Positions 3,546-49,149 of a DNA stretch of 64,000 nucleotides are shown one piece after another. Made by a program: the position numbers and the translations under genes. The stretch lies in sequence record OR896157.1, one strand, 5' to 3'. Every line of letters starts with the position of its first letter. Position 1 is the stretch's first letter. Source of the DNA: a phage. Below the pieces are notes generated by a model that was not told the DNA's origin, searched no databases, and saw nothing but the letters and a program-made list of their open reading frames with translations.

Positions 3546-4925
3546 TTAGAGAGCCTCTAGGTCCTTCATATACTCAATTTCTGGAGTAGTTTCTTGCCAG
3601 TACTTCAGCTCAGCTTTCAGGTCTTTAGCTTGTTGAGCAAGTTTCTTTGCTTCGTCACTTGTGATGTGATAGATGTTCATTGACACTAACTTGTCAACAA
3701 ATGGTGCATAAGTTGGACGAGATTCAAGTTCAGAAGTCAGTTGTTTACGAGTTTTGCCTTGAATGACAATACTACCTTCAATAACTTCTTTGATGAACAT
3801 CGCTTTAGCCAAAGCTAATTTGAATGCTTCATCGCATTCTTTGACTTTGTGTTCAATTCGTTTGACAATGTAAGTCTTACGAACTTCCACAAAGTGCTTG
3901 ATAAGTTCAGAAGAACTTTGGAACTTATCGTTTAACTTTCCGTTTTCATCAATGACCACGATGAATTGAGACATCTTCTCAACCAATTTGAAGTCACGCA
4001 TGATTTTCTCATGCCGCTGCTCATCGTCTTGGCCAAGCATATAATCTTTCTTGAACTTCACTTTAAAGCCAAAGCCGGTCTTTGAACAATCATCAACGTA
4101 AGAGATGAAGTTCTTATCTACCATTGGCTCAAGTACTTTTTCCACATAAGTTTCGCGGTCAAACTTAGCTGGAATTTCGCTGATGTACATTTGAGATGCT
4201 GAAGTGAACTTATAAAGACCACGGCATTCAATTGACCCATCTTCAAGACGAACTACTTCACCGCGGAATTGTGGAATTTGAACTTCTGGTTCTTTATCCA
4301 GTTTTCCTTGAAGAGCTAATTTAGTACATTCAACTACTGATTCAAAATTATGTGGAAGAATCTTAGTAGCATAACCAGTTGCAATTCCCTGTACACCGTT
4401 CAGAAGGACGGTTGGAATAATTGGAAGATAGAATGCAGGTGGAACGTGCTCTTTATCTTTATGCTCTGGAGCAATTTCAGTGTCTTTATAGACCTTACGG
4501 AAATTGTCAGAAATACGACAGAAGATATAACGAGATGCTGCCGCTTTTTGTACCAATCGTGAACCGAAGTTTCCTTGACCATCCAAAAGAGGATAGTTGT
4601 TGTTCCAAGTGTTAGCCATAAGCGCGCCAGCATCTTGTGCCGAGCCTTCGCCATGGTGATAACCGAGGTCAGCAACACCACCTGCCACAGAAGCCAATTT
4701 ATGGAATTTTTCTTTATTACCACGAGACAAATCTAGTGCACGAGCAATAACAAATCGTTGAACTGGCTTGAAGCCATCAATTAAGTTAGGAATTGCACGG
4801 TTTTCTACTGTGTAGATTGCAAATTCTTTGGCTTCATTGTCAATGATGCTTTGAAGGTTTCTTACATTAAGTTGACCAACAGAGTCATCGAGTTGTTTAG
4901 ACATCATGTCAAAAATAGTTGTCAT
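3546..4925 (-). CDS. 52: DNA topoisomerase II medium subunit gp52 (GyrA/ParC-like)
   Basis: 459 aa; contains IPNLIDGFKPVQRFVIARALDL and LDGQGNFGS topoisomerase motifs; matches remembered T4 gp52. Confidence 0.9.
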   Translation of the reverse strand: MTTIFDMMSKQLDDSVGQLNVRNLQSIIDNEAKEFAIYTVENRAIPNLIDGFKPVQRFVIARALDLSRGNKEKFHKLASVAGGVADLGYHHGEGSAQDAGALMANTWNNNYPLLDGQGNFGSRLVQKAAASRYIFCRISDNFRKVYKDTEIAPEHKDKEHVPPAFYLPIIPTVLLNGVQGIATGYATKILPHNFESVVECTKLALQGKLDKEPEVQIPQFRGEVVRLEDGSIECRGLYKFTSASQMYISEIPAKFDRETYVEKVLEPMVDKNFISYVDDCSKTGFGFKVKFKKDYMLGQDDEQRHEKIMRDFKLVEKMSQFIVVIDENGKLNDKFQSSSELIKHFVEVRKTYIVKRIEHKVKECDEAFKLALAKAMFIKEVIEGSIVIQGKTRKQLTSELESRPTYAPFVDKLVSMNIYHITSDEAKKLAQQAKDLKAELKYWQETTPEIEYMKDLEAL

Positions 4926-5246
4926 ATTACCCTACCAGATTAAATTACCGATGTTCATCATAACACGAGCAAGAAAAAGCACTATTTCGCCCATCACATA
5001 AACAGCTCCGGCTAAAGCGCCGGAGAGTAATATTGACACACCAATAACGCCTATTGAGAGTTTCATTTTATTAAGCCTGTGTAATAGAACAAACGTTCTA
5101 CAGCTAATGCAGCTACACCAAAGCACATGCTTCCAATGACTCTTGGCGGAGGGGTTAACCCCTCCCAAATAAACAGACCAGAAGCGATGAAAAGCGGAGC
5201 CATGAGCAAGAACACCAAAGCCCAAATCTGTTTGAACGGACTCATA

Positions 5247-5693
5247 TTAATATGCCTGAAGAATAAATTTGAAGTTATCATTCAACATGCGATTCATTTC
5301 TTCCAGGTTCTGATAAGAATCGTTATGTTTACGTGTGAATGCCAGCGCCAATTGACCTTTACCAAAACCAGTAGTCAAAGGCTTCATTTTATCAGCCGGA
5401 ACGAAGTACACATCGTAGATGACGTTATTTGAACGCATAGTACGACCAAGCTGAGAACGACCCTGACGAATCTGCGACAGAACATTCATAAAGCCAGATT
5501 TTGAACGTTGACGACCAACGTAGAATCGTGCTGCTACTGCACGCCAAGCTGAAGCGCCTTTAACCATGAAGTAGAAACCAGGTTCAGCCAGAATAGATGG
5601 GTCAACATACCCTACAGTTTCACCATTTTTAACAGTACACACAACAGTTGCACCAACAGCTTCAAGGTCACCACGAGTCATGTAATCACGCAT
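5247..5693 (-). CDS. ndd: Ndd nucleoid disruption protein
   Basis: from ATG at 5693 (GAGGAAAA RBS); C-terminal half ...[45 protein letters not shown] matches remembered T4 Ndd almost residue for residue. Confidence 0.8.
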
Positions 5694-10209: not shown

Positions 10210-10416
10210 TCAGTCACAGTGTCGTTTTATTAGGTTAGCTACATCCAGAAGTTCTTCCGCAGTAGCCGTATCGGTGATAAAAATTTTATTACGAATTTCT
10301 TTAAAGCGCTCTTTGAATTCTTCAGCTTCTCCGATGTCAAAGAAGCGTTGAATGATACGATACTCTTTGTAGACAGCATCGTCGAACAGTTCAGCAGAAG
10401 GTTTTAAAGTTAACAT
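10210..10416 (-). CDS. hypothetical protein (68 aa)
   Basis: minus-strand ORF immediately downstream of rIIA-side neighbours. Confidence 0.45.
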   Translation of the reverse strand: MLTLKPSAELFDDAVYKEYRIIQRFFDIGEAEEFKERFKEIRNKIFITDTATAEELLDVANLIKRHCD

Positions 10417-10694
10417 TTGATAGTTCCTATTGAGTTAAGGATTTTCGCCATTTGTTTTATTGTATACTTTTCTCGGCGATTGTAAACCACCTTCAACGCG
10501 AACGTCCGAAGGTTCATAGGAATGGTCTGGCGAGTTTCAATACAGTTAACAATATAATCTATTGCCTGTTTGAATTTAATGTGATAGGGGTCATCTGGTG
10601 AACCTCCATGCTCAGTTAGATGTCGTTCTCCGTTCTGTTTGATACATTCTGCTACGTTTTCAAGATTTACCAAAGTTCCATCATCAAGAATCAT
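10410..10694 (-). CDS. hypothetical protein (94 aa)
   Basis: ATG at 10694 after GAGGTGA RBS. Confidence 0.5.
   Translation of the reverse strand: MILDDGTLVNLENVAECIKQNGERHLTEHGGSPDDPYHIKFKQAIDYIVNCIETRQTIPMNLRTFALKVVYNRREKYTIKQMAKILNSIGTIKC
10459..10486 (-). promoter_or_regulatory. possible early promoter (TTTACA-16-TACAAT)
   Basis: 16-nt rather than 17-nt spacer; lies inside 3-prime end of ORF 10410-10694. Confidence 0.3.
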
Positions 10695-10739: not shown

Positions 10740-10895
10740 TTACCACGAAGCACGAGAAACAATGCCTGTGACTTTAGTATAAGAGCCGTTGGTATGTCTT
10801 ACACGGATAGTGACAGTATCACCTGGGAGCGGCAGAGCATCTCCCCACATGTAGCCGTAACTTCCATCTACTAATGTTACCCAAATCTGTGACAT
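10740..10895 (-). CDS. small ORF (51 aa), not in ORF track
   Basis: ATG at 10895 after AAGGAG RBS; MSQIWVTLVDGSYGYMWGDALPLPGDTVTIRVRHTNGSYTKVTGIVSRASW. Confidence 0.35.
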   Translation of the reverse strand: MSQIWVTLVDGSYGYMWGDALPLPGDTVTIRVRHTNGSYTKVTGIVSRASW

Positions 10896-10934: not shown

Positions 10935-12779
10935 TTATTCGCTCATCCAGACCTTGCGTGGAGCAGCATCAGAACCCATAACCATCTCGAAGAGTTCTTT
11001 CCAGTTTTCCGGAAGAGAAACTACATCATAATGAGGTTCTTGGATTACTCGTTCATATTCGTCTTCTTCCAAAGAACCGAGCCCTTTGATGTAACGAAGT
11101 TTCCAACCAGCAAGTTCATCTTTTTCAGCTTCATATTCAGCGGCAGTGTAATACCACTTCTGTTTGTCTCCTTTACTCATAATGATAACAGGAGTTTTGA
11201 CGAAGCGAATTCGACCTTCTTCAAACAGACGAGGCCAATTACTAAAGAATGCCAAAAGACTTGGATAGATTGAACCTGTTCCGTCAACATCCGCGTCAGT
11301 CATGATAGCGATGTTTTTGTAGTTCAGATTTTCATAATCTTCACCAATAGTCAGTCCAGTGATTGCACAGATATCGAAGACTTCTTTGTTCTTCATTGCT
11401 TCTGCTGCAGTCATTCCCCAAGTATTCAGGAACTTACCACGAAGTGGATAACCACCATGAAGTTTACGGTCACGAGTAGTCAGAAGATAACCAATCGCAG
11501 AATCACCTTCTGTTAAGAACAGAGTGGTTTCTTCTTTATCATTACCATAAAGTTCTGGCTTAATGTGTTTAGCAACCTTAGCTTTTGAAGCAGCTTTTGC
11601 AGCTTTAGTTTCAGCAGCTTTTTCTGCCGCCAATTTACGAGCCAACATAGCTTCAATAATTGGCATATGAATTGCTTCGGACTTCATAACTTGTTGAGCA
11701 AGTTTTTTGTAGTCCAAATTCAAATGAGCTTTAACTTCACCCCACGGAGATGTCAGACGTTCTTTAGTCTGAGAATCAAATCGCATGTTGCTCATATCAC
11801 GAACGAACATCACAAAAGTAAAACACTCTTTGATACGAGCTTTGTTTACTTCCAATTTGTACTTGCGTTTGAGCATTGGGATAAGTTCATTTGACAATTC
11901 GTCGACAACCAAATCAACGTGAGAACCACCCTTAGAAGTATGAATGTTATTCACGTAAGTCAGTTGGCGGAAACCATCATCAGAACGACCAATTGCAATT
12001 GAACAATTATCTTCATCAGCTACAATAGCTTCTTCATCAAATTGCTTAGCGAATTTCTTGAATCCGCCATTGACTTTTTTGCCTTGGAATTTGAATTCAA
12101 TATCCGGGAATACTACCGCCAGAGTTTGAAGACGGTCCAGAACAATTGATTCATCTACTTCTGTAAGTCCTGAACTTTCGAAGTGACTGAAGTCAGGAAT
12201 GAACGATACTCGAGTTCCGGTCTTGGTTTGAATGAACTCTTTTTCCTTTGCTGGCTTACTATCCCAAGAGATATTCTCAGCCCCATTAGAGCATCGAACG
12301 ATGATTTCGTTTTGTCCGTCACAAGTAGCTCCTGCAAAAGTTACAGAGAAAATATTAGTCAGTGCAGAACCGACACCATTCATACCACCAGTTTTGCGTT
12401 CAGCATCATCGCCAAAGTTACCACCGGCACGTGGACGAGTCCAAGCAGCTACTGGTCCAGGAATTTCATCACCTTCTGGAGTGACTACTGGAGCTTGTGG
12501 AAGACCACGACCATTATCTGTTACGATAACTTTATTGCCTTTGAGCTCAACTGAAATTTTATTTGCAAACTTGAAGTTGGTACGAATTGCTTCATCGACT
12601 GAGTTATCAATGATTTCGTCAATCAGCTTGATTACGCCCGGAACATAAGTTACACTTTGGAATTTACCAAACAGAAAACGTTCATGAGCTTCCATAGCTG
12701 AAGAGCCGATGTACATACCAGAGCGCTTAATGATATGCTCTCGGTCTGACAGAATTTTAATTTCGTTCTTAATCATCAT
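10935..12779 (-). CDS. 39: DNA topoisomerase II large subunit gp39 (GyrB-like ATPase), single ORF covering the T4 39 plus 60 regions
   Basis: ATGATG start at 12779 (GAGGA RBS); GHKL ATPase motifs ...DEIIDNSVDEA... and ...VIVTDNGRGLP...; no split or bypass segment. Confidence 0.9.
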   Translation of the reverse strand: MMIKNEIKILSDREHIIKRSGMYIGSSAMEAHERFLFGKFQSVTYVPGVIKLIDEIIDNSVDEAIRTNFKFANKISVELKGNKVIVTDNGRGLPQAPVVTPEGDEIPGPVAAWTRPRAGGNFGDDAERKTGGMNGVGSALTNIFSVTFAGATCDGQNEIIVRCSNGAENISWDSKPAKEKEFIQTKTGTRVSFIPDFSHFESSGLTEVDESIVLDRLQTLAVVFPDIEFKFQGKKVNGGFKKFAKQFDEEAIVADEDNCSIAIGRSDDGFRQLTYVNNIHTSKGGSHVDLVVDELSNELIPMLKRKYKLEVNKARIKECFTFVMFVRDMSNMRFDSQTKERLTSPWGEVKAHLNLDYKKLAQQVMKSEAIHMPIIEAMLARKLAAEKAAETKAAKAASKAKVAKHIKPELYGNDKEETTLFLTEGDSAIGYLLTTRDRKLHGGYPLRGKFLNTWGMTAAEAMKNKEVFDICAITGLTIGEDYENLNYKNIAIMTDADVDGTGSIYPSLLAFFSNWPRLFEEGRIRFVKTPVIIMSKGDKQKWYYTAAEYEAEKDELAGWKLRYIKGLGSLEEDEYERVIQEPHYDVVSLPENWKELFEMVMGSDAAPRKVWMSE

Positions 12780-12824
12780 TTGTCCTCGTTTAGGTGAACA
12801 TTCTAACATTCAAATCTTAAAGCG

Positions 12825-13211
12825 TTACATCCGAGAGATTTTTTCTTCAAGTTCTGCTTTGTATTGTAACAAATGAGTTTTAGCTTCTTCACCATAAATT
12901 GCATCATAGGTTGGGTTATACATGCTATACAGTCCCTTTTCACGACGCTTTTTATAGAACTTATGGCGCACTTCACGAAAATTCGTATATGCGTATATAT
13001 CAACACCATAATACGCTTCGCACTCATAGCTTCCGTCTTCGTTTTGATGAACATGCTCATGACGAATCTCATAATACTTTTCAAGCCAAATATAGCTTCC
13101 ATCGACTATACGGGTAGGCCATAAAGCAAACTTCCTGCGCCCAAGCGCATTGTTCACAATTTTGAGTTGCTTGAGCAAATTTTTATGCTCTACAGTTAAA
13201 CCGAATCTCAT
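12825..13211 (-). CDS. hypothetical protein (128 aa)
   Basis: minus-strand ORF downstream of promoter at 13235-13263. Confidence 0.5.
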   Translation of the reverse strand: MRFGLTVEHKNLLKQLKIVNNALGRRKFALWPTRIVDGSYIWLEKYYEIRHEHVHQNEDGSYECEAYYGVDIYAYTNFREVRHKFYKKRREKGLYSMYNPTYDAIYGEEAKTHLLQYKAELEEKISRM

Positions 13212-13289: not shown

Positions 13290-14825
13290 TTATACTTTAC
13301 CTTGCAGAACGTTAGTGAACTGCGAACCACGCCAGAAGTAGCCTTGGTCATTCGGGTGAACGTTATCGCTTGAGGTATACAGATTTGCGTTCTCTGCAGT
13401 AACCCAACCTTTAACATCTACGAACTCTAAGTCTAACTCAGTAGTAAGTTCAATCAGTGCGTCACGAACCGCTGCGATTTGGTCAGTCATTCCAAGAGGA
13501 GTTGCTGGTCCAAATACGATAATTTTAGCTTGTGGCTGATATTGCTTAATCAGAGCAATAGACTCTCTGAAGTTAGTTTTAAGCAAATCAATTCTGCCAG
13601 CCGGAGCGTCATTATAGCCTAAAGCTAAAGTAATGATATCTGGAGTAAAACTCAGAGTTGCAAGCTTAGCCGTGATACGAGCTTGAGGCTGAGTTGAGTT
13701 TGTTGAAGTCCAACCAGAACCACCGATGCCATCAGCTAATCCAACTAAACCAAGCTTATCACAATAGAAACGGAAGTCGTTAAACGACGCCTGAGTTGCC
13801 ATTGTACCGAAGGTGTAAGAGTCACCAAGCTGCCAAATCATCTTAGCCGGACGAGTAATCGCAGTGATAGTTTTTCCAGTATCAACATAAATTCCACCAA
13901 AGGCAGTATTCACGCCAACCAGAGAATATTCACGCATTTGCTCAACACCGTTCCAATCGATGCTATAGATGTAAACTGCACCAGAAGAATCAGTAGTGAC
14001 TGAAGTTGCAGAAATACGTTGTCCATCCACATAAAGATCATACTTGGAGTTATTGCCAGCGAGTTTGAAATCAATTTTGCTTGAATCGGTTTTGAAATTA
14101 ACTCGGCATTGAGTTCCGTTGCCGGTACCATTTCCTCTGTATCCAGAAACAGCATCTTTGACATCAGAACCCCAATAAGTGATTTTAGCATCAGTACGAG
14201 CAATAGTTACACCAGCATAAATCGTTGAAGCTACGCCTGCATTAGTTGTTACAGTGAATTTAGCACCTGTGCCAGTTCCGCCTGTCGCTGAAATTTCACC
14301 GGTAGGAGCAGTTGCGTACACACCAGGTTTGCGAATTTGAGCTGTTGTAATTGCGCCATCAGCACCTACAGCAGTTACTCGAATCTGTCCAGGAACATCT
14401 CCTTCTGCTCCGGGGATATCAACAATATCTCCGAACACATATCCAGTACCACCAGAAATTATAGTAGCAGTTCCAGATAATCCAACGCCTTTAATCAATT
14501 TTTGAGTAGGCGGATTTGACATTACCGCAACCGGTTGAAGCATTGGTCCTAACGGCGGTTGAGGGTCTGGAACATCTACTGTATATTCGCTTAATGTGTA
14601 TTGATAACCATTTTTAGATTCAATGAAATTAACTTCACCATAATCTACATAAGCTTGTTTGAGAGTATCAATTTGAGGGGCATATTGAGGGTCAGCGTAT
14701 TCACGCCAATCTTTACCTTCTTCCTTGGCTTTAATAAGGATGTTATGAATCCACCAAGGAAGGTAAAGAAAACTTGTATTACGCCACGGAATAGGATGTA
14801 CCGTGGTCCAAATATCTATAGCCAT
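13290..14825 (-). CDS. SGNH/GDSL-family hydrolase with Gly/Thr-rich N-terminal domain (511 aa)
   Basis: C-terminal third has block I GDSYTFG, a GYND-type block (LALGYNDA) and a DNVHPND block (Asp...His catalytic pair); N-terminal region has repeated GGTG/ATGGTGTGAKFTVTT; ATG at 14825 after AAGGAGAA RBS. Confidence 0.6.
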   Translation of the reverse strand: MAIDIWTTVHPIPWRNTSFLYLPWWIHNILIKAKEEGKDWREYADPQYAPQIDTLKQAYVDYGEVNFIESKNGYQYTLSEYTVDVPDPQPPLGPMLQPVAVMSNPPTQKLIKGVGLSGTATIISGGTGYVFGDIVDIPGAEGDVPGQIRVTAVGADGAITTAQIRKPGVYATAPTGEISATGGTGTGAKFTVTTNAGVASTIYAGVTIARTDAKITYWGSDVKDAVSGYRGNGTGNGTQCRVNFKTDSSKIDFKLAGNNSKYDLYVDGQRISATSVTTDSSGAVYIYSIDWNGVEQMREYSLVGVNTAFGGIYVDTGKTITAITRPAKMIWQLGDSYTFGTMATQASFNDFRFYCDKLGLVGLADGIGGSGWTSTNSTQPQARITAKLATLSFTPDIITLALGYNDAPAGRIDLLKTNFRESIALIKQYQPQAKIIVFGPATPLGMTDQIAAVRDALIELTTELDLEFVDVKGWVTAENANLYTSSDNVHPNDQGYFWRGSQFTNVLQGKV

Positions 14826-39723: not shown

Positions 39724-41408
39724 TCCAGTACCGTAAAGCGTCCAACTTTCTTCATTTGAAGATGTTGTCCGTATGCTTGAGGGTCATGGTCTCGGTGAGA
39801 AATTATAAAAATATTTGAATTTGGCATTTTACTAAGAATGTTATTAATTGCTTTAACACCCTCAGCATCGGTGGCGGAGTCAAAAATTTCATCTAAGAAC
39901 AGACAACTTATTTTAACACCAGATACCAATTCAGCAATATCACGCCAAGTAAATAACAGCGCAATATCAATACGAGCTTTCTCGCCTTGACTGAAAGAGT
40001 TATAACTAAACTCTTCGCGTCCTCGGGATTTAATCGTTTCGTTGAACTCTTCATTCAACGTAAAGACGTAATCCGCATCCATTATCTTCAAGTATGTATT
40101 AATCTGCTTATTGAACAGAGGAATGTACTTCTTAATGATTGCGCCTTTAATACCAGAATCCTTGAACATTTCTGTAAGAATACCACGTTGATATTTTTCC
40201 ATAACAATGTTGGATTTGGTATCAACTATTTTATTCAATTCTTCTGTAAGCGTTTTGATTTCATCTGAATAATCAATGAACTCTTCAGCTGCTTTATCAA
40301 TAGCTGCTTTAATCTTACGAATACGCTCTATAGCTGCTTTTAACTCTTCGGTTTTGGCTGCGACTTGTCCTCGGATGTCTCTGGCTCGGCGTTTAACCGC
40401 TTCATATTCAATTTGGGAAGCCTGAAGATTCTCTAGATGCGTTTTTAACTCAGCATGTTTGATATTACATTCATCAACTTTCGAGTTAATCTGGCCGATT
40501 AGAGCATCACTAGAGTGCAAATCCTGCAAACATGTTGGACAATGACCGCCTTTATCATACAACGACAGAACTTTTGTGTATGACTCGATGCGGTTCAGAA
40601 TAGTCATCCCAGCCATCTGAGTTTTCTGAATTCCTTCAGACACATCATCTTCTTCGCCAATTACGATGTTAGCCAAGTTCTTGTTCAGCTCGTCGATAGT
40701 TGAACGAATGTTACGAGCATCAGCCATAGACTCTTCGTACATACTCTGCCAACGAGCAACGTTTTCGCCAGAAAGTTTCTTTTGCTTCTCTATGTTTTCT
40801 TCATAGATTTTGATTTGTTGCTGAATTCCGTCTTTCTTTGCATCAAGAACTTGAACTTGAGAATTCAGTTCTCGAACCAAAGACTTATTCAGTTTATCCA
40901 TTTCAGCAATGATTGAAACTTCAAGCAGGTCTTCTACTAACTTTCTCCGAGCGGGTGTACTAAGACCCATAAACGGAGTGTAGCCTGCTGTTCCGAGTAC
41001 CACGACCTGCTTGAAACTCGTGTATGACATTCCAATGAGTTCTTCGAAATAACTTTGGAAGTCTTTAACTGAAGCTGCTTCATCAAGTTTAGCACCGTCG
41101 CGTTCAATTTCAAAGACATTTGGTTTCTGTCCACGTTTGATGTAATACGAATGACCGTCATATTCCATCCACAATTCGCAGAGCAATCCTTTCTTATTGG
41201 TGGAATTAATTAATTGGCCTTTCTTGAAATCACGGAATGGCTTACCAAACAATGCGAACGTAATCGCTTCAAGCATTGTACTTTTACCGGCACCATTCTT
41301 ACCAGTGATTAATGTTTTGTGAACCTTATCAAGTTGAATATCAATGGGCTGTCCGCCCACTGACATAATATTTTGATACTTGACTCGGTTCAATTTGAAA
41401 ATCTTCAT
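39720..41408 (-). CDS. 46: recombination endonuclease subunit gp46 (SbcC/Rad50-like ATPase)
   Basis: 562 aa; Walker A GKNGAGKST near N-terminus, long coiled-coil middle, C-terminal Walker B/D-loop region. Confidence 0.9.
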   Translation of the reverse strand: MKIFKLNRVKYQNIMSVGGQPIDIQLDKVHKTLITGKNGAGKSTMLEAITFALFGKPFRDFKKGQLINSTNKKGLLCELWMEYDGHSYYIKRGQKPNVFEIERDGAKLDEAASVKDFQSYFEELIGMSYTSFKQVVVLGTAGYTPFMGLSTPARRKLVEDLLEVSIIAEMDKLNKSLVRELNSQVQVLDAKKDGIQQQIKIYEENIEKQKKLSGENVARWQSMYEESMADARNIRSTIDELNKNLANIVIGEEDDVSEGIQKTQMAGMTILNRIESYTKVLSLYDKGGHCPTCLQDLHSSDALIGQINSKVDECNIKHAELKTHLENLQASQIEYEAVKRRARDIRGQVAAKTEELKAAIERIRKIKAAIDKAAEEFIDYSDEIKTLTEELNKIVDTKSNIVMEKYQRGILTEMFKDSGIKGAIIKKYIPLFNKQINTYLKIMDADYVFTLNEEFNETIKSRGREEFSYNSFSQGEKARIDIALLFTWRDIAELVSGVKISCLFLDEIFDSATDAEGVKAINNILSKMPNSNIFIISHRDHDPQAYGQHLQMKKVGRFTVLE

Positions 41409-42427
41409 TGATTCTGAGCCTCAACATAAAGAGCTTGTGCAAATTTTTTCAATGCAGCATTATCAGTTGGAGATAAGTCTTCCAATGCATCAATATATTC
41501 TGACATCAAATCTAATAAGCTTTTAACTTCGATATCTTCTTCGTCATCAGATTCAACTGAGTTGTCAATCTTAGAAACCATACGAAGCTCGTGAACTACT
41601 TTTTCGAGTTCAGTTTCAAACTTCGTGATGTCTTTATCAACATCAGTGACAATTACTCGGACTGAAAGATTTTTGTAGTCGTTGTAATCAATCTTACCTG
41701 TAAATGGATATTGAAGTCTTACATGCCAAGTGGTTTCGTTTGGCACAAAATCCATACTTTCCGTTGCGGTATCGAAAATCCAGAATCCGCGAGGGTCGTT
41801 CTCGTCACCTGCTGTAAGGGTCCAGGGAGTGCCGATATACTTAACATTGGCAGCAGAGGATATAGTATGGAAATGCCCTGACCACACTTGCTTATATGAC
41901 TTAAGGAAATCTGGCTCGAGACCATGAGATTTTAAACCCTTGTAGTAATAGAAGCCATTAAGCTCCCAGTGTCCAATACAATACTCTGCAGATGATTCTT
42001 TAACATGCTTCATAATAGAAGCTACGTTTTCATCACAAAGCCATGGAATTAGGTCGATTAAGCATCCATCAAAATCAACAGTAGTAGGCACATCATAAAT
42101 TTTGATGTGGTCATGTTTGCCCAATACTTCTGTGATAGCGTTAGGATGAATTTTATTCTTATAATGCATATCGTGGTTTCCGATGATTGTATGCATCGTA
42201 ATCCCAGCTTCTGCTAGCATATCAACTATTTCACGAGCGAATTCCATCGTCTTGTGAGTAATAGCTTTACGTACGTCAAAAATATCTCCATACTGAATCC
42301 ACACGGTAATTCCATGCTTCTTCGAGTACTCAATTTTTTGACGAATACCATCACGTTGAATTTCTTGAAGCCAAGGGTCATCACCCTTTACGCCCAGATG
42401 CCAGTCACCTGTGTGAAGAATTTTCAT
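41405..42427 (-). CDS. 47: recombination endonuclease subunit gp47 (SbcD/Mre11-like phosphoesterase)
   Basis: 340 aa; MKILHTGDWHLG and GNHD calcineurin-like phosphoesterase motifs. Confidence 0.9.
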   Translation of the reverse strand: MKILHTGDWHLGVKGDDPWLQEIQRDGIRQKIEYSKKHGITVWIQYGDIFDVRKAITHKTMEFAREIVDMLAEAGITMHTIIGNHDMHYKNKIHPNAITEVLGKHDHIKIYDVPTTVDFDGCLIDLIPWLCDENVASIMKHVKESSAEYCIGHWELNGFYYYKGLKSHGLEPDFLKSYKQVWSGHFHTISSAANVKYIGTPWTLTAGDENDPRGFWIFDTATESMDFVPNETTWHVRLQYPFTGKIDYNDYKNLSVRVIVTDVDKDITKFETELEKVVHELRMVSKIDNSVESDDEEDIEVKSLLDLMSEYIDALEDLSPTDNAALKKFAQALYVEAQNQ

Positions 42428-42567
42428 TTCTTTTTCCTCAATTTAAGACGGCGATGTGGAAGTTTTATTTTAATCGCAGATGTATGTTCTCTTTTACCTG
42501 ATATTTGAATCCAGTTAATTTTCATATTTCACCTCAAAGAGATTATATTCTATACTCCAGAAAGCAG

Positions 42568-42587
42568 AAAGGGCCCGAAGGCCCTTT
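42568..42587 (-). terminator. hairpin AAAGGGCC-TTCG-GGCCCTTT upstream of gene 47
   Basis: GC stem, CGAA loop, followed by UUUCUGCUUUCU. Confidence 0.45.
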
Positions 42588-42774
42588 AAATTTTACTGTA
42601 TGTGATAGTTACTTCGGCTTTTGCTTTATCATATGACATCTTGAACCGCCTCATCATTTCAGTCTTGCCGTTATGAATCTTTGCATAATCAATAGCTCTT
42701 TCTAAAGCTTCAGCCGAATAAACAGTTCCGTTGCGGGATACTACAGCAGCTTTTAATATTACAGCTTCCACCAT
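42586..42774 (-). CDS. hypothetical protein (62 aa)
   Basis: minus-strand ORF. Confidence 0.4.
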   Translation of the reverse strand: MVEAVILKAAVVSRNGTVYSAEALERAIDYAKIHNGKTEMMRRFKMSYDKAKAEVTITYSKI

Positions 42775-42968
42775 GGCTTCACCATAATTGTATCAGCCCA
42801 GACTAATTCCTTTTTAGTAGCTTTAACTACTGGATTGATAGGACCGGTTTCACCCAAGACTTTGTAATGGGTTTCAGATACTTTAATAGCCATTACACCA
42901 TCAGCAACAGACAAAGTGAAACCTGCGTTTACTTTCAGACGTTTGAATTTAACCTGCTTTATAGCCAT
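42759..42968 (-). CDS. hypothetical protein (69 aa)
   Basis: minus-strand ORF. Confidence 0.4.
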   Translation of the reverse strand: MAIKQVKFKRLKVNAGFTLSVADGVMAIKVSETHYKVLGETGPINPVVKATKKELVWADTIMVKPWWKL

Positions 42969-43317
42969 TTAAAATTTCCCAGATCTGACGACGAGTGGTT
43001 TCCCATTGGACTTTGATAAGCTCGTCATTGAATGGTTGACGTAAGATTTTACGAGATTTTTCAATCGCATACTTATACGCCGCGAAGTTGTTATCGAGAA
43101 CTGATTGCTGAGCATGTTTGTTCAAACGTTCAAGTTCGCGACTATTTTTCTTGATAATTTTATCAGCTTTAGATTTAGCATTTGCTGCAATTCGAGCTTG
43201 TGCTTCTTCAATAGCTGCAAGACGATCTTCTTCCATTAATTTCTGATGGTCTGGATCTTCAATCAACTGGTCTTGATATTCAAGTTCTGCTTTGAATGCT
43301 TCGCCTGGTTGTAGCAT
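42949..43317 (-). CDS. hypothetical protein (122 aa)
   Basis: minus-strand ORF. Confidence 0.45.
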   Translation of the reverse strand: MLQPGEAFKAELEYQDQLIEDPDHQKLMEEDRLAAIEEAQARIAANAKSKADKIIKKNSRELERLNKHAQQSVLDNNFAAYKYAIEKSRKILRQPFNDELIKVQWETTRRQIWEILNGYKAG

Positions 43318-43323
43318 AATTCC

Positions 43324-43551
43324 TCATTCTGGAAAGTATTCTAATGTGATATAAAAATCATCATCAGATATATGGTAATTGTAGTTCAAGTCTTTGCCAT
43401 CGCACTTGAACTCTGTATCATGTGGGTTCTTGGGGTCGATGTGAATGTCCAAATCCAATACCTCCCTCATATACATTTTAAGCAAATAAGGGATAGCATC
43501 GTAATCGGGCACTTCTTCTAAAAATCCTGCGAGGTTAATCGTCAGCCTCAT
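43324..43551 (-). CDS. hypothetical protein (start uncertain)
   Basis: minus-strand ORF overlapping 3-prime end of gene 55. Confidence 0.4.
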
Positions 43552-44679: not shown

Positions 44680-44903
44680 AGAATAAGCTCCTTAGCGCAT
44701 TCAATAGCTTCATCCATACTTCCGAATGCATCTACTGAGTGATAATCTTTCCCAGTGTATTCATAAACCCACCAGGCGTCAAAATCTTCTTCAATAACAA
44801 AATCAACATCGTTCTTTGAAGTACCTTCAATCATCAAGCGACCGTCTTCAGTTCGCTTTGTTTGAAATCCGGCTAGATGCAGATCATTTTCAATTTCATT
44901 CAT
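44676..44903 (-). CDS. hypothetical protein (75 aa)
   Basis: coupled ORF. Confidence 0.45.
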   Translation of the reverse strand: MNEIENDLHLAGFQTKRTEDGRLMIEGTSKNDVDFVIEEDFDAWWVYEYTGKDYHSVDAFGSMDEAIECAKELIL

Positions 44904-46374: not shown

Positions 46375-46860
46375 TTATTCAGGATGTTCATTGTGTTCCT
46401 CATTCCAAGTTCCGCTGTTAATCCACAGCCTTTGATTGTCACTGCCTCTCCAAAGCTTTTTAGTTGGTAGAGACTGTTCATATTTACCATCGATAATAAC
46501 ATCAACATAATTTAGCAGTTCCAAGTCCTTGATATCTTCGAACTTGTAGCCCGTCCACATCCAAACATCTTTATGAGGATGACTAGTGTGTAAGCACTTA
46601 AGTAGTGCTTCTATAGTTTCTCTGTTGTCTGGATAAAGAGGGTCTCCACCTGTAAGAGTGATTCCTTGAATGTAATCTTTGCTTAAAAGCTCTCTGATTT
46701 CTCCAATGGTTTCACCGGTGAATTCTGTTCCATTACGCGGATTCCATGTAGATTTATTGTAACATCCTTCACATTTATGCAAACACCCGGTGACAAAAAG
46801 AACGACCCTGCAACCAGGGCCATTCACAAAATCACAAGGATAGATTCTGTCATACTTCAC
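46375..46860 (-). CDS. nrdG: anaerobic ribonucleotide reductase activating protein NrdG (radical SAM)
   Basis: 161 aa; YDRIYPCDFVNGPGCRVVLFVTGCLHKCEGCYN...SLPTKKLWRGSDNQRLW matches remembered T4 NrdG; GTG start. Confidence 0.9.
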   Translation of the reverse strand: MKYDRIYPCDFVNGPGCRVVLFVTGCLHKCEGCYNKSTWNPRNGTEFTGETIGEIRELLSKDYIQGITLTGGDPLYPDNRETIEALLKCLHTSHPHKDVWMWTGYKFEDIKDLELLNYVDVIIDGKYEQSLPTKKLWRGSDNQRLWINSGTWNEEHNEHPE

Positions 46861-48679
46861 AGTGCTTTGTCCTATGCATTATTTCTTTGTTTTTACCAAG
46901 ATTAAATCCACGTTCAGATGGATTGCCAAGATATCCACAAGTGCGTCGTATTGTGTTCATCTTTTTAGGGTCTGATTCACCACATTCATGACAGACAAAT
47001 CCATCTTCCGTTGGAGTCATTTCATGAGTTGAACCGCATGTAAAGCACTTATCAACTGGCATGTTTACACCGAAGTAATCAAGATGCTCAACAGCATAAT
47101 CCCACACTGCTTCAAGACCTTTAAGGTTGTTCTTCATATCAGGAAGTTCTACATAACTGATATGACCACCCTTAGCGATGAAGTGGAAAATAGCTTCACG
47201 GTCAATTTTACCAAATGGAGAAATCTTTTCTTCTACTGAAACATGGAAACTGTTGGTGTACCACCCTTTATCGGTGACGCCTTTGATATCACCATGGACT
47301 TCAGCGTCAATCTTACAGAAGCGATAGCACAAATTCTCTGCTGGAGTTGAATAAAGACTAAAAGCAAAGCCAGTCTCTTTAGTCCATTCAGCAAGATAAT
47401 CATTCAGGCATTTCAGAAGAAGCTTACCGATATCAGCACCCAATAGAGTTTGAACTTCATGGATTCCGATGTACCCTAACGAAATTGAAGAACGACCATT
47501 TCGGAAGATGTCGAGAATCTCATCGTTTGGCTTAAGACGAACACCAAAAGCACCTTCTTGATAAAGAATAGGAGCTACAGAAGCTGTTACACCACGAAGT
47601 GATTCAATACGAGCTAAAAGAGCTTCTTTACAAATCTTCAAACGGTCATCAAGAATGTGGAAGAACTTGGTCAAGTCTGGACGGCCATCAACCATACAAT
47701 CGAGTGCTACTCGTGGTAGGTTAATTGTCACTACACCAAGATTATTACGACCATCGAGAATTTCTTCGCCGTCTTTGTTCTTCCATACGCCCAGGAATGA
47801 GCGACATCCCATTGGAGAAACTGGAACAGAAGAGCCAGTGATTAGACGGTTATTCTTTGAACTAATGATGTCAGGATACATTCGCTTACTTGCACATTCC
47901 AATGCAAGTTGTTTGATGTCATAGTTCACATCAGTAGGATGAAGGTTAATTCCTTCTTCAACAAACATAACGAGCTTAGGAAAAATCGGAGTGATTCCGT
48001 CTCGTCCAAGACCTTTGATTCTATTTTTGAGAATAGCTTTTTGAATCATTCGTTCATAATCGCTTGTACCAGTACCAAAGGTAATTGTCACGAATGGAGT
48101 TTGTCCATTTGAACTGAACAAAGTATTGACTTCATATTCATAAGCTTGGAATGCGTCGTATACGTCTTTTTCTGTTTTCTCAATCGCGTATACATAGTCA
48201 TTGACATGCTCAATGCCGTATCTTTCTGCATCGTGTAAATGCTTAAAGAAAGTCTTCTCTACAAAAGGAGCAAGTACAACATCAACATTAGCAAATGTCG
48301 TTCCACCATATTGATGTGAAGCTACTTGAGCAGTGATTTGAGCCATAATAGCAGTTGCTACACCAATTGACTTTGGAGTCTCAATTTGAGCATTACCAAG
48401 TTTAAATCCATTGCTGAGCATACCCTTCAAATCGACTAAGCAACAGTTAGTGAATGGAAGAGCTGGAGAATAGTCTAAGTCATGAAAATGAATAAGACCT
48501 TTATCATGAGCATTTAGAACAGTAGGAGAGATAACCTGACGAGCAATGTGTTTTGAAACAATTCCTGCCATCAGGTCTCGTTGAGTTGGAAAAACACGAG
48601 AATCTTTATTAGCATTCTCGTTTAGTAAGTCTTTGTTGGTGCGGTTGATTAAACCCTGGATTTCTGATTCAATTGTCAT
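46850..48679 (-). CDS. nrdD: anaerobic ribonucleoside-triphosphate reductase NrdD, uninterrupted
   Basis: 609 aa continuous ORF; glycyl-radical C-terminus ...RRTCGYLGNP... and C-x2-C...C-x2-C zinc site; no intron. Confidence 0.9.
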   Translation of the reverse strand: MTIESEIQGLINRTNKDLLNENANKDSRVFPTQRDLMAGIVSKHIARQVISPTVLNAHDKGLIHFHDLDYSPALPFTNCCLVDLKGMLSNGFKLGNAQIETPKSIGVATAIMAQITAQVASHQYGGTTFANVDVVLAPFVEKTFFKHLHDAERYGIEHVNDYVYAIEKTEKDVYDAFQAYEYEVNTLFSSNGQTPFVTITFGTGTSDYERMIQKAILKNRIKGLGRDGITPIFPKLVMFVEEGINLHPTDVNYDIKQLALECASKRMYPDIISSKNNRLITGSSVPVSPMGCRSFLGVWKNKDGEEILDGRNNLGVVTINLPRVALDCMVDGRPDLTKFFHILDDRLKICKEALLARIESLRGVTASVAPILYQEGAFGVRLKPNDEILDIFRNGRSSISLGYIGIHEVQTLLGADIGKLLLKCLNDYLAEWTKETGFAFSLYSTPAENLCYRFCKIDAEVHGDIKGVTDKGWYTNSFHVSVEEKISPFGKIDREAIFHFIAKGGHISYVELPDMKNNLKGLEAVWDYAVEHLDYFGVNMPVDKCFTCGSTHEMTPTEDGFVCHECGESDPKKMNTIRRTCGYLGNPSERGFNLGKNKEIMHRTKHCEV

Positions 48680-49149
48680 TTTAAACTCTTACGAAGTTGC
48701 TTTTTGAATGAAGCAACAAGCTTTGGTTTGGAATCATCTTCAGAATAGGTAAACCCGTAAGCATTCATTTCAGCTATCATCTCGGGTTTACCAAGTCGAC
48801 TGAATTCTTTTGACTTATCGCCAATGAAATTAGGATGAATGTTGTTTTTAGTATAGTCATTCTTCAGATAGGTCAGCAAACTCTCAAGCCACTCGAGGTA
48901 GTCGACTTCACGACCTTTCAAACCAGAGCGGTTGAACTTATGCTTCATTTGACCTTCTGCTGCGTTACACAAATTACACAGTAAACCACGAACTTTACCG
49001 GCTTTTGGTCCGTTCAATTCATGGTCGTGGTCAAGGTGGTTACTTTGAACATCGCTGTCTAATTCACGTTTACAAATCGGACAGATACCATGCTGTGCAT
49101 CAAATAGTCTTTGTTTTTCTTCTTTGTAGAGTTTGCTGGTCAATAACAT
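48676..49149 (-). CDS. 49: endonuclease VII gp49 (Holliday junction resolvase)
   Basis: 157 aa; nearly identical to remembered T4 gp49 (MLLT.KLYKEEKQ...HLDHDHELNGPKAGKVRGLLCNLCNAAEGQMKHKFNRSGLKG). Confidence 0.9.
   Translation of the reverse strand: MLLTSKLYKEEKQRLFDAQHGICPICKRELDSDVQSNHLDHDHELNGPKAGKVRGLLCNLCNAAEGQMKHKFNRSGLKGREVDYLEWLESLLTYLKNDYTKNNIHPNFIGDKSKEFSRLGKPEMIAEMNAYGFTYSEDDSKPKLVASFKKQLRKSLK

Follow-up and report, generated by a model that had tools for sequence, protein, structure and literature searches.

Gene 39 and nrdD are single, uninterrupted genes in a T4-like phage genome of the Karamvirus type

The DNA analysed here, a 64,000-nucleotide stretch of phage record OR896157.1 that we refer to as the window, encodes the predicted large subunits of a type II DNA topoisomerase (gene 39) and of an anaerobic ribonucleotide reductase (nrdD) as single open reading frames, and neither contains the elements that interrupt its T4 counterpart. 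Both genes are almost certainly present in their ordinary, ancestral, uninterrupted form in a Karamvirus genome, and lack interruptions because the selfish elements of T4 have not settled in this lineage. The elements concerned would be the free-standing gene mobC, the group I intron that carries the I-TevII gene, and the MobA homing-endonuclease cassette together with its bypass sequence of 50 nt. In both genes the frame is continuous and colinear with its homologues, the domain content is consistent with a whole protein, and intron and cassette are absent; reading frames of over 600 codons that share 70-80% identity with known proteins cannot reasonably be ascribed to chance. The initial annotation had described gene 39 as a single 614-aa ORF without the T4 39/60 split and nrdD as a single intronless 609-aa ORF, and had named alignment to T4 gp39 plus gp60 and to T4 NrdD as the check, with missing internal segments as the sign against it. 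Both descriptions are borne out: the gene 39 ORF is colinear with T2 gp39, the nrdD ORF aligns with spliced T4 NrdD and has no Rfam intron, and no internal segment is missing from either. The two genes are located as follows.

10935..12779, minus strand: gene 39 ('60plus39'), predicted type II DNA topoisomerase large subunit, one ORF of 614 aa
46850..48679, minus strand: nrdD, predicted class III (anaerobic, glycyl-radical) ribonucleotide reductase large subunit, one ORF of 609 aa

By sequence similarity the window can be assigned to a Karamvirus genome, that of a T4-like Enterobacter phage of the CC31/PG7 type. Both gene regions match approximately 30 GenBank records of Enterobacter and Klebsiella phages in the genus Karamvirus, including CC31, PG7, myPSH1140, vB_VIPECLOM01 and SonariX, with 93-99.4% DNA identity and 100% query cover; CC31, which is the type phage of the lineage, is 95% identical to the window at the DNA level, and other isolates are up to 99.4% identical. 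None of these approximately 30 records has an insertion in gene 39 or nrdD, every match being a single piece of the length of the query. From 7991 to 57760 the window is colinear with vB_VIPECLOM01, its closest well-annotated relative, apart from a replaced block of ~0.9 kb and an indel of ~250 nt, neither of which is big enough for a typical homing endonuclease gene plus intron, and no homing endonuclease is annotated in 50 kb of vB_VIPECLOM01. Two of the public records are unusual. The Enterobacter phage SonariX record (PQ898399) is 248,734 bp long while the remaining relatives are ~172 kb, and the record of Aeromonas phage PS49 (PP212877), its host label notwithstanding, shares 97% identity with these Enterobacter phages; these may reflect an assembly problem and a labelling problem, respectively.

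Delimited mechanically, the gene 39 ORF extends over 10935..12809 on the minus strand and, read from the ATG that comes first after the upstream stop, encodes 624 aa; the 614-aa reading uses the same frame from the next ATG, giving a protein that begins MMIKNEIKIL. A further ATG at 12776, 3 nt downstream of the one at 12779, gives a 613-aa product. A GAGGA Shine-Dalgarno sequence precedes this pair of neighbouring ATGs (12779 and 12776), the upstream region reading ...AAACGAGGACAAATGATGATT... in the window and ...AAACGAGGATAAGTGATGATT... in T4, where the start is the equivalent of the second of these ATGs (12776). The annotated start differs correspondingly between CC31 (614 aa, 1845 nt) and vB_VIPECLOM01 (613 aa). 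The 614-aa and 613-aa starts are equally defensible, and the continuity of the gene is independent of the choice. The 624-aa start at 12809 was rejected, as it has no ribosome-binding site and both the GAGGA sequence and the T4 arrangement favour 12779/12776.

The single gp39 chain is predicted to span the parts expected of a GyrB-like subunit. Pfam HATPase_c matches residues 51-195 (29.9 bits, cutoff 26.4), and the GHKL ATPase motifs IDNSVDE, DNGRG and GGMNGVGS align with those of T2 and T4; the transducer domain, DNA_gyraseB, matches residues 267-392 (53.4 bits, cutoff 27). TOPRIM_C scores 25.2 bits, under its cutoff of 29, and there is no separate Toprim match, but the Toprim motifs TEGDSA (at ~423-428) and TDADVDG (at ~494-500) can be read by eye on the same chain in the alignment with T2 and T4. 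Membership of gp39 in the type IIA ATPase/Toprim subunit family is thus predicted, for its Toprim part from the 72% identity to T2 gp39. Gene 39 would encode the whole GyrB-like subunit (GHKL ATPase, transducer and Toprim) in one polypeptide made by conventional translation without a ribosome hop. By homology, the enzyme presumably consists of two subunits, gp39 and gp52, as it does in T2, and not of the three (gp39, gp60 and gp52) that make up the T4 enzyme. A candidate for the partner gene was identified by position and by a GyrA-like motif read by eye (IDGFKPVQRF).

3546..4925, minus strand: probable gene 52, topoisomerase II medium (GyrA-like, DNA-cleaving) subunit, ORF of 459 aa

If this assignment is correct, the two topoisomerase subunit genes lie within 9 kb of each other, flanking the rII genes.

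The alignments of gp39 with its T2 and T4 counterparts are continuous through the region where the T4 gene is split. For T4, we translated gp39 (516 aa) and gp60 (160 aa) from the T4 loci, taking out the 50-nt gap annotated in gene 60, and aligned both to the window protein. The window protein aligns to T4 gp39 residues 1-471 (~70% identity) and to gp60 residues ~32-160 (~66%), and these alignments contain no counterpart in window gp39 of the last ~44 residues of T4 gp39 or of the first ~30 of gp60. Aligned end to end with the unsplit T2 gp39 (605 aa), it has 436 identical residues of 605 (72.1%) and nine gap columns. Seven of these come from an insertion in the ATPase/transducer region (residues 181-187 of the window protein), and the other two from an extra Met at the N terminus and a single extra residue near 415. 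From residue 420 to residue 614 the alignment with T2 is gap-free, also at the split site, where the window reads ICAITGLTIGEDYENLNYKNIAIMTDADVDGTGSIY and T2 reads ICAITGLVLGEKAENLNYHNIAIMTDADHDGLGSIY. Two positions of the T4 interruption can be placed on the window, the first from the alignments and the second by DNA comparison with T4 gene 60.

11334..11342, minus strand: codons 480-482 (E-D-Y), where homology to T4 gp39 ends, equivalent to the 5' edge of the T4 mobA insertion
11280..11282, minus strand: codon G500 (GGA) at MTDADVDG/TGSIY, equivalent to the T4 gene 60 take-off codon Gly46

The frame of the window is uninterrupted at the first of these. At the second, the 50-nt untranslated gap of T4 gene 60 separates GAT GGA from TTA GGT, and the window has GAC GGA ACA GGT with no break; the GGA codon for the take-off glycine is common to both. 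Of the T4 features, the window thus lacks mobA, gene 60.1, the 50-nt gap and a separate gene 60, and its gp39 has neither of the cassette-derived extensions, at the C terminus of T4 gp39 and at the N terminus of gp60. It resembles T2 (and also T6, RB32 and RB51) in that gene 39 is a single colinear ORF with TEGDSA and TDADxDG on one chain, although T2 belongs to another genus and its gp39 lacks the 7-aa insertion and two single extra residues. The closest comparison is with CC31 '60plus39' (CC31p005, YP_004009863), which has the same 1845 nt length and encodes a protein identical at 613 of 614 positions. CC31 and the other Karamvirus relatives differ from the window in this gene only by point substitutions, with a start sometimes placed one codon later, and they share its neighbours: rIIA, rIIA.1, two small ORFs, gene 39, a further small ORF and a Hoc-like/GDSL protein.

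For nrdD, the window protein was compared with spliced T4 NrdD (605 aa), and the splice junction was found by deleting 1033 nt at each possible position of the T4 gene and scoring how well every resulting product matched the window protein. The best junction places a T at the end of exon 1 and a G at the end of the intron, the pattern of a group I intron, and the joined protein reads AYE/YEVN. The two proteins are identical at 475 of 605 residues (78.5%) with four gap columns, two of which form an indel at ~161-162 and two of which lie at the C terminus. A single unbroken match covers the whole Pfam NRDD profile, positions 1-562 of 562 (E = 3.5e-165), and Gly_radical is matched with E = 9e-25, its RRTCGYLG motif being conserved with T4. 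The equivalent of the intron site is unoccupied.

48135..48136, minus strand: equivalent of the T4 nrdD intron site, GCTTATGAAT/ATGAAGTC, within codon 182 of E181-Y182-E183; unoccupied

No ~1-kb insertion is present at the equivalent of T4 Y180, and the window reads on through AYEYEVN at 48136/48135. The surroundings of the site are conserved with T4 (GCTTATGAAT/ATGAAG in the window, GCTTATGAGT/ATGAAG in T4). An Rfam scan of the whole window at gathering thresholds returned no RNA family and no Intron_gpI, and the two T4 loci included in the same run as a positive control gave a single match, Intron_gpI at 105.3 bits within T4 nrdD. Unlike the T4 nrdD (sunY) locus, the window lacks the 1033-nt group I intron, I-TevII and mobC. 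By homology, NrdD would be made from one exon through an unspliced message, be activated by NrdG, and reduce NTPs anaerobically. The genes on either side of nrdD are as follows.

46375..46860, minus strand: nrdG, predicted radical-SAM activase of NrdD, ORF with Pfam Fer4_12 (E = 5e-47) and Radical_SAM
48676..49149: gene 49, predicted endonuclease VII, flanking nrdD

On the T4 map the free-standing homing endonuclease gene mobC lies between nrdD and nrdG; in the window nrdG instead directly overlaps the end of nrdD, by 11 nt. The gene order nrdG-nrdD-49-pin is common to the window and its CC31/Karamvirus relatives.

The uninterrupted state is the norm among T4 relatives, and it is the T4 interruptions that are rare. 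A 131-aa gp39 segment across the split site is matched by 2099 phage records and a 91-aa NrdD segment across the intron site by 2445; if a match to at least 80% of the segment in one place is taken as continuous, 2006 and 2021 of these records, respectively, are continuous. The remainder for NrdD includes the T4-type records, which match in two places, and partial alignments in distant phages. The full mobA/bypass cassette (part of gene 60, 60.1 and mobA), taken as a match to at least 80% of the query, is limited to 41 phage records of T4 type. In approximately 440 further Tequatrovirus records (T2, RB32, RB51 and others) the match is confined to the 94 nt that lead up to the bypass site, and several of these cassette-less records are annotated '60plus39'. 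No Karamvirus is among the listed matches to the T4 cassette. The full T4 nrdD intron is found in 25 records, all T4-type Tequatroviruses, with copies that are at least 99% identical. The initial annotation had spoken of T4-specific oddities being absent from this genome; their absence stands, but they are not strictly specific to T4, being present in near-identical Tequatrovirus relatives (41 records for the cassette, 25 for the intron).

The state of both genes in this lineage is already known: the CC31 gene is labelled '60plus39: DNA topoisomerase II large subunit' in GenBank, and Petrov et al. 2010 (PMC2993671) list the homing endonuclease genes of CC31 as 'None' in their Table 5 and report that the three introns containing homing endonuclease genes are restricted to the T-even cluster. 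The preprint of Manning & Atkins (10.1101/2022.08.31.505936) describes MobA/bypass cassettes in six clades, five of which are other myovirus clades, and identifies the C-terminal extension (CTE) of gp39 and the N-terminal extension (NTE) of gp60 as derived from the cassette; its text mentions neither 'Enterobacter' nor 'Karamvirus'.

The alternative that survives best is that the nrdD intron, the cassette or both were present in an ancestor of the phage and were later lost cleanly, for example by recombination with an uninterrupted allele or with a reverse-transcribed spliced RNA. Homing elements cycle through gain and loss, and a precise loss would leave no trace. However, all of the approximately 30 matched Karamvirus records are uninterrupted, and the copies of the nrdD intron are at least 99% identical and restricted to T4-type Tequatroviruses, suggesting recent spread within that group and not an old ancestral presence. 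We therefore consider precise secondary loss very improbable, and infer that the lineage was never invaded.

Even less probable, to a degree that leaves it hardly credible, is a 'hit-and-run' variant in which the MobA cassette once split gene 39 and was later excised, leaving the CTE/NTE scar in a re-fused ORF. Fused genes with such a scar are reported from an Aeromonas phage clade (10.1101/2022.08.31.505936), and window gp39 is 9 aa longer than T2 gp39. However, none of the nine extra residues is at the insertion site (~470-500), where the alignment with T2 is gap-free, and nothing in the window resembles the ~44-aa CTE of T4 gp39 or the ~30-aa NTE of gp60. A scar in gene 39 is thus ruled out by the gap-free T2 alignment across the site. 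Some other hidden interruption (such as an intein, another kind of intron, a programmed frameshift, or a short bypass at a different place in the ORF) is likewise extremely unlikely and can be dismissed for either gene, because both ORFs are open from start to stop, Rfam finds no RNA family in the window at gathering threshold, and the full-length global alignments to T2 gp39 (nine gap columns), T4 gp39/gp60 and spliced T4 NrdD (four gap columns) leave no room for an intein or a skipped segment.

The practical consequence for annotation is that gene 39 and nrdD should be called as single CDSs, with no gene 60, ribosomal hop or intron to be expected. The initial annotation regarded the observation as relevant for anyone expecting T4-like interruptions; absence is the default state and should not come as a surprise. 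The window also provides one more data point for the view that the T4 interruptions are recent insertions of selfish elements in a few phages. We offer only as a speculation, with rather long odds against it, that the empty sites are either functional homing targets of MobA and I-TevII, convertible upon co-infection with a T4-type phage, or have drifted so as to make the phage naturally immune; immunity by drift, if true, would help to explain why the elements stay within the T-even cluster. The region of the MobA nick, within 11265..11372, is identical to T2 at 74 of 108 nt, and the ~37 nt around the nrdD insertion site (48135/48136, the I-TevII site) contain five mismatches.

The surroundings of gene 39 include several further ORFs.

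10410..10694, minus strand: small ORF, 94 aa, Pfam DUF7367
10740..10895, minus strand: small ORF, 51 aa, no Pfam family
12825..13211, minus strand: ORF of 128 aa just upstream of gene 39, no Pfam match
13290..14825, minus strand: GDSL/SGNH hydrolase-domain protein, 511 aa, Pfam Lipase_GDSL_2 at residues 333-496

The first two lie between rIIA.1 and gene 39, where T4 holds gene 60/60.1/mobA, and both are kept in CC31 and vB_VIPECLOM01 as hypothetical proteins. The ORF at 12825..13211 is annotated as 155 aa in CC31 (4835..5302) and as 128 aa in vB_VIPECLOM01, so its start or 5' region varies between isolates. The CC31 counterpart of the 511-aa protein is annotated as a head decoration protein, Hoc-like at its N-terminus and similar to G-D-S-L lipolytic enzymes at its C-terminus. 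The window protein is thus a putative capsid-decoration/esterase fusion, known in relatives, at a location where T4 has only small ORFs.

The two differences from vB_VIPECLOM01 can also be located. The block at 42441..43407 (~0.9 kb), with gene 47 (SbcD-like, 41405..42427) on one side and the gene 55 region on the other, has no aligned counterpart in this otherwise 97%-identical genome. It contains small ORFs of 62, 69 and 122 aa and represents a local mosaic replacement where T4 has its a-gt region. At ~44895..44903, vB_VIPECLOM01 is longer by ~248 nt, corresponding to its 264-nt ORF VIPECLOM01_00062, a small presence/absence polymorphism.
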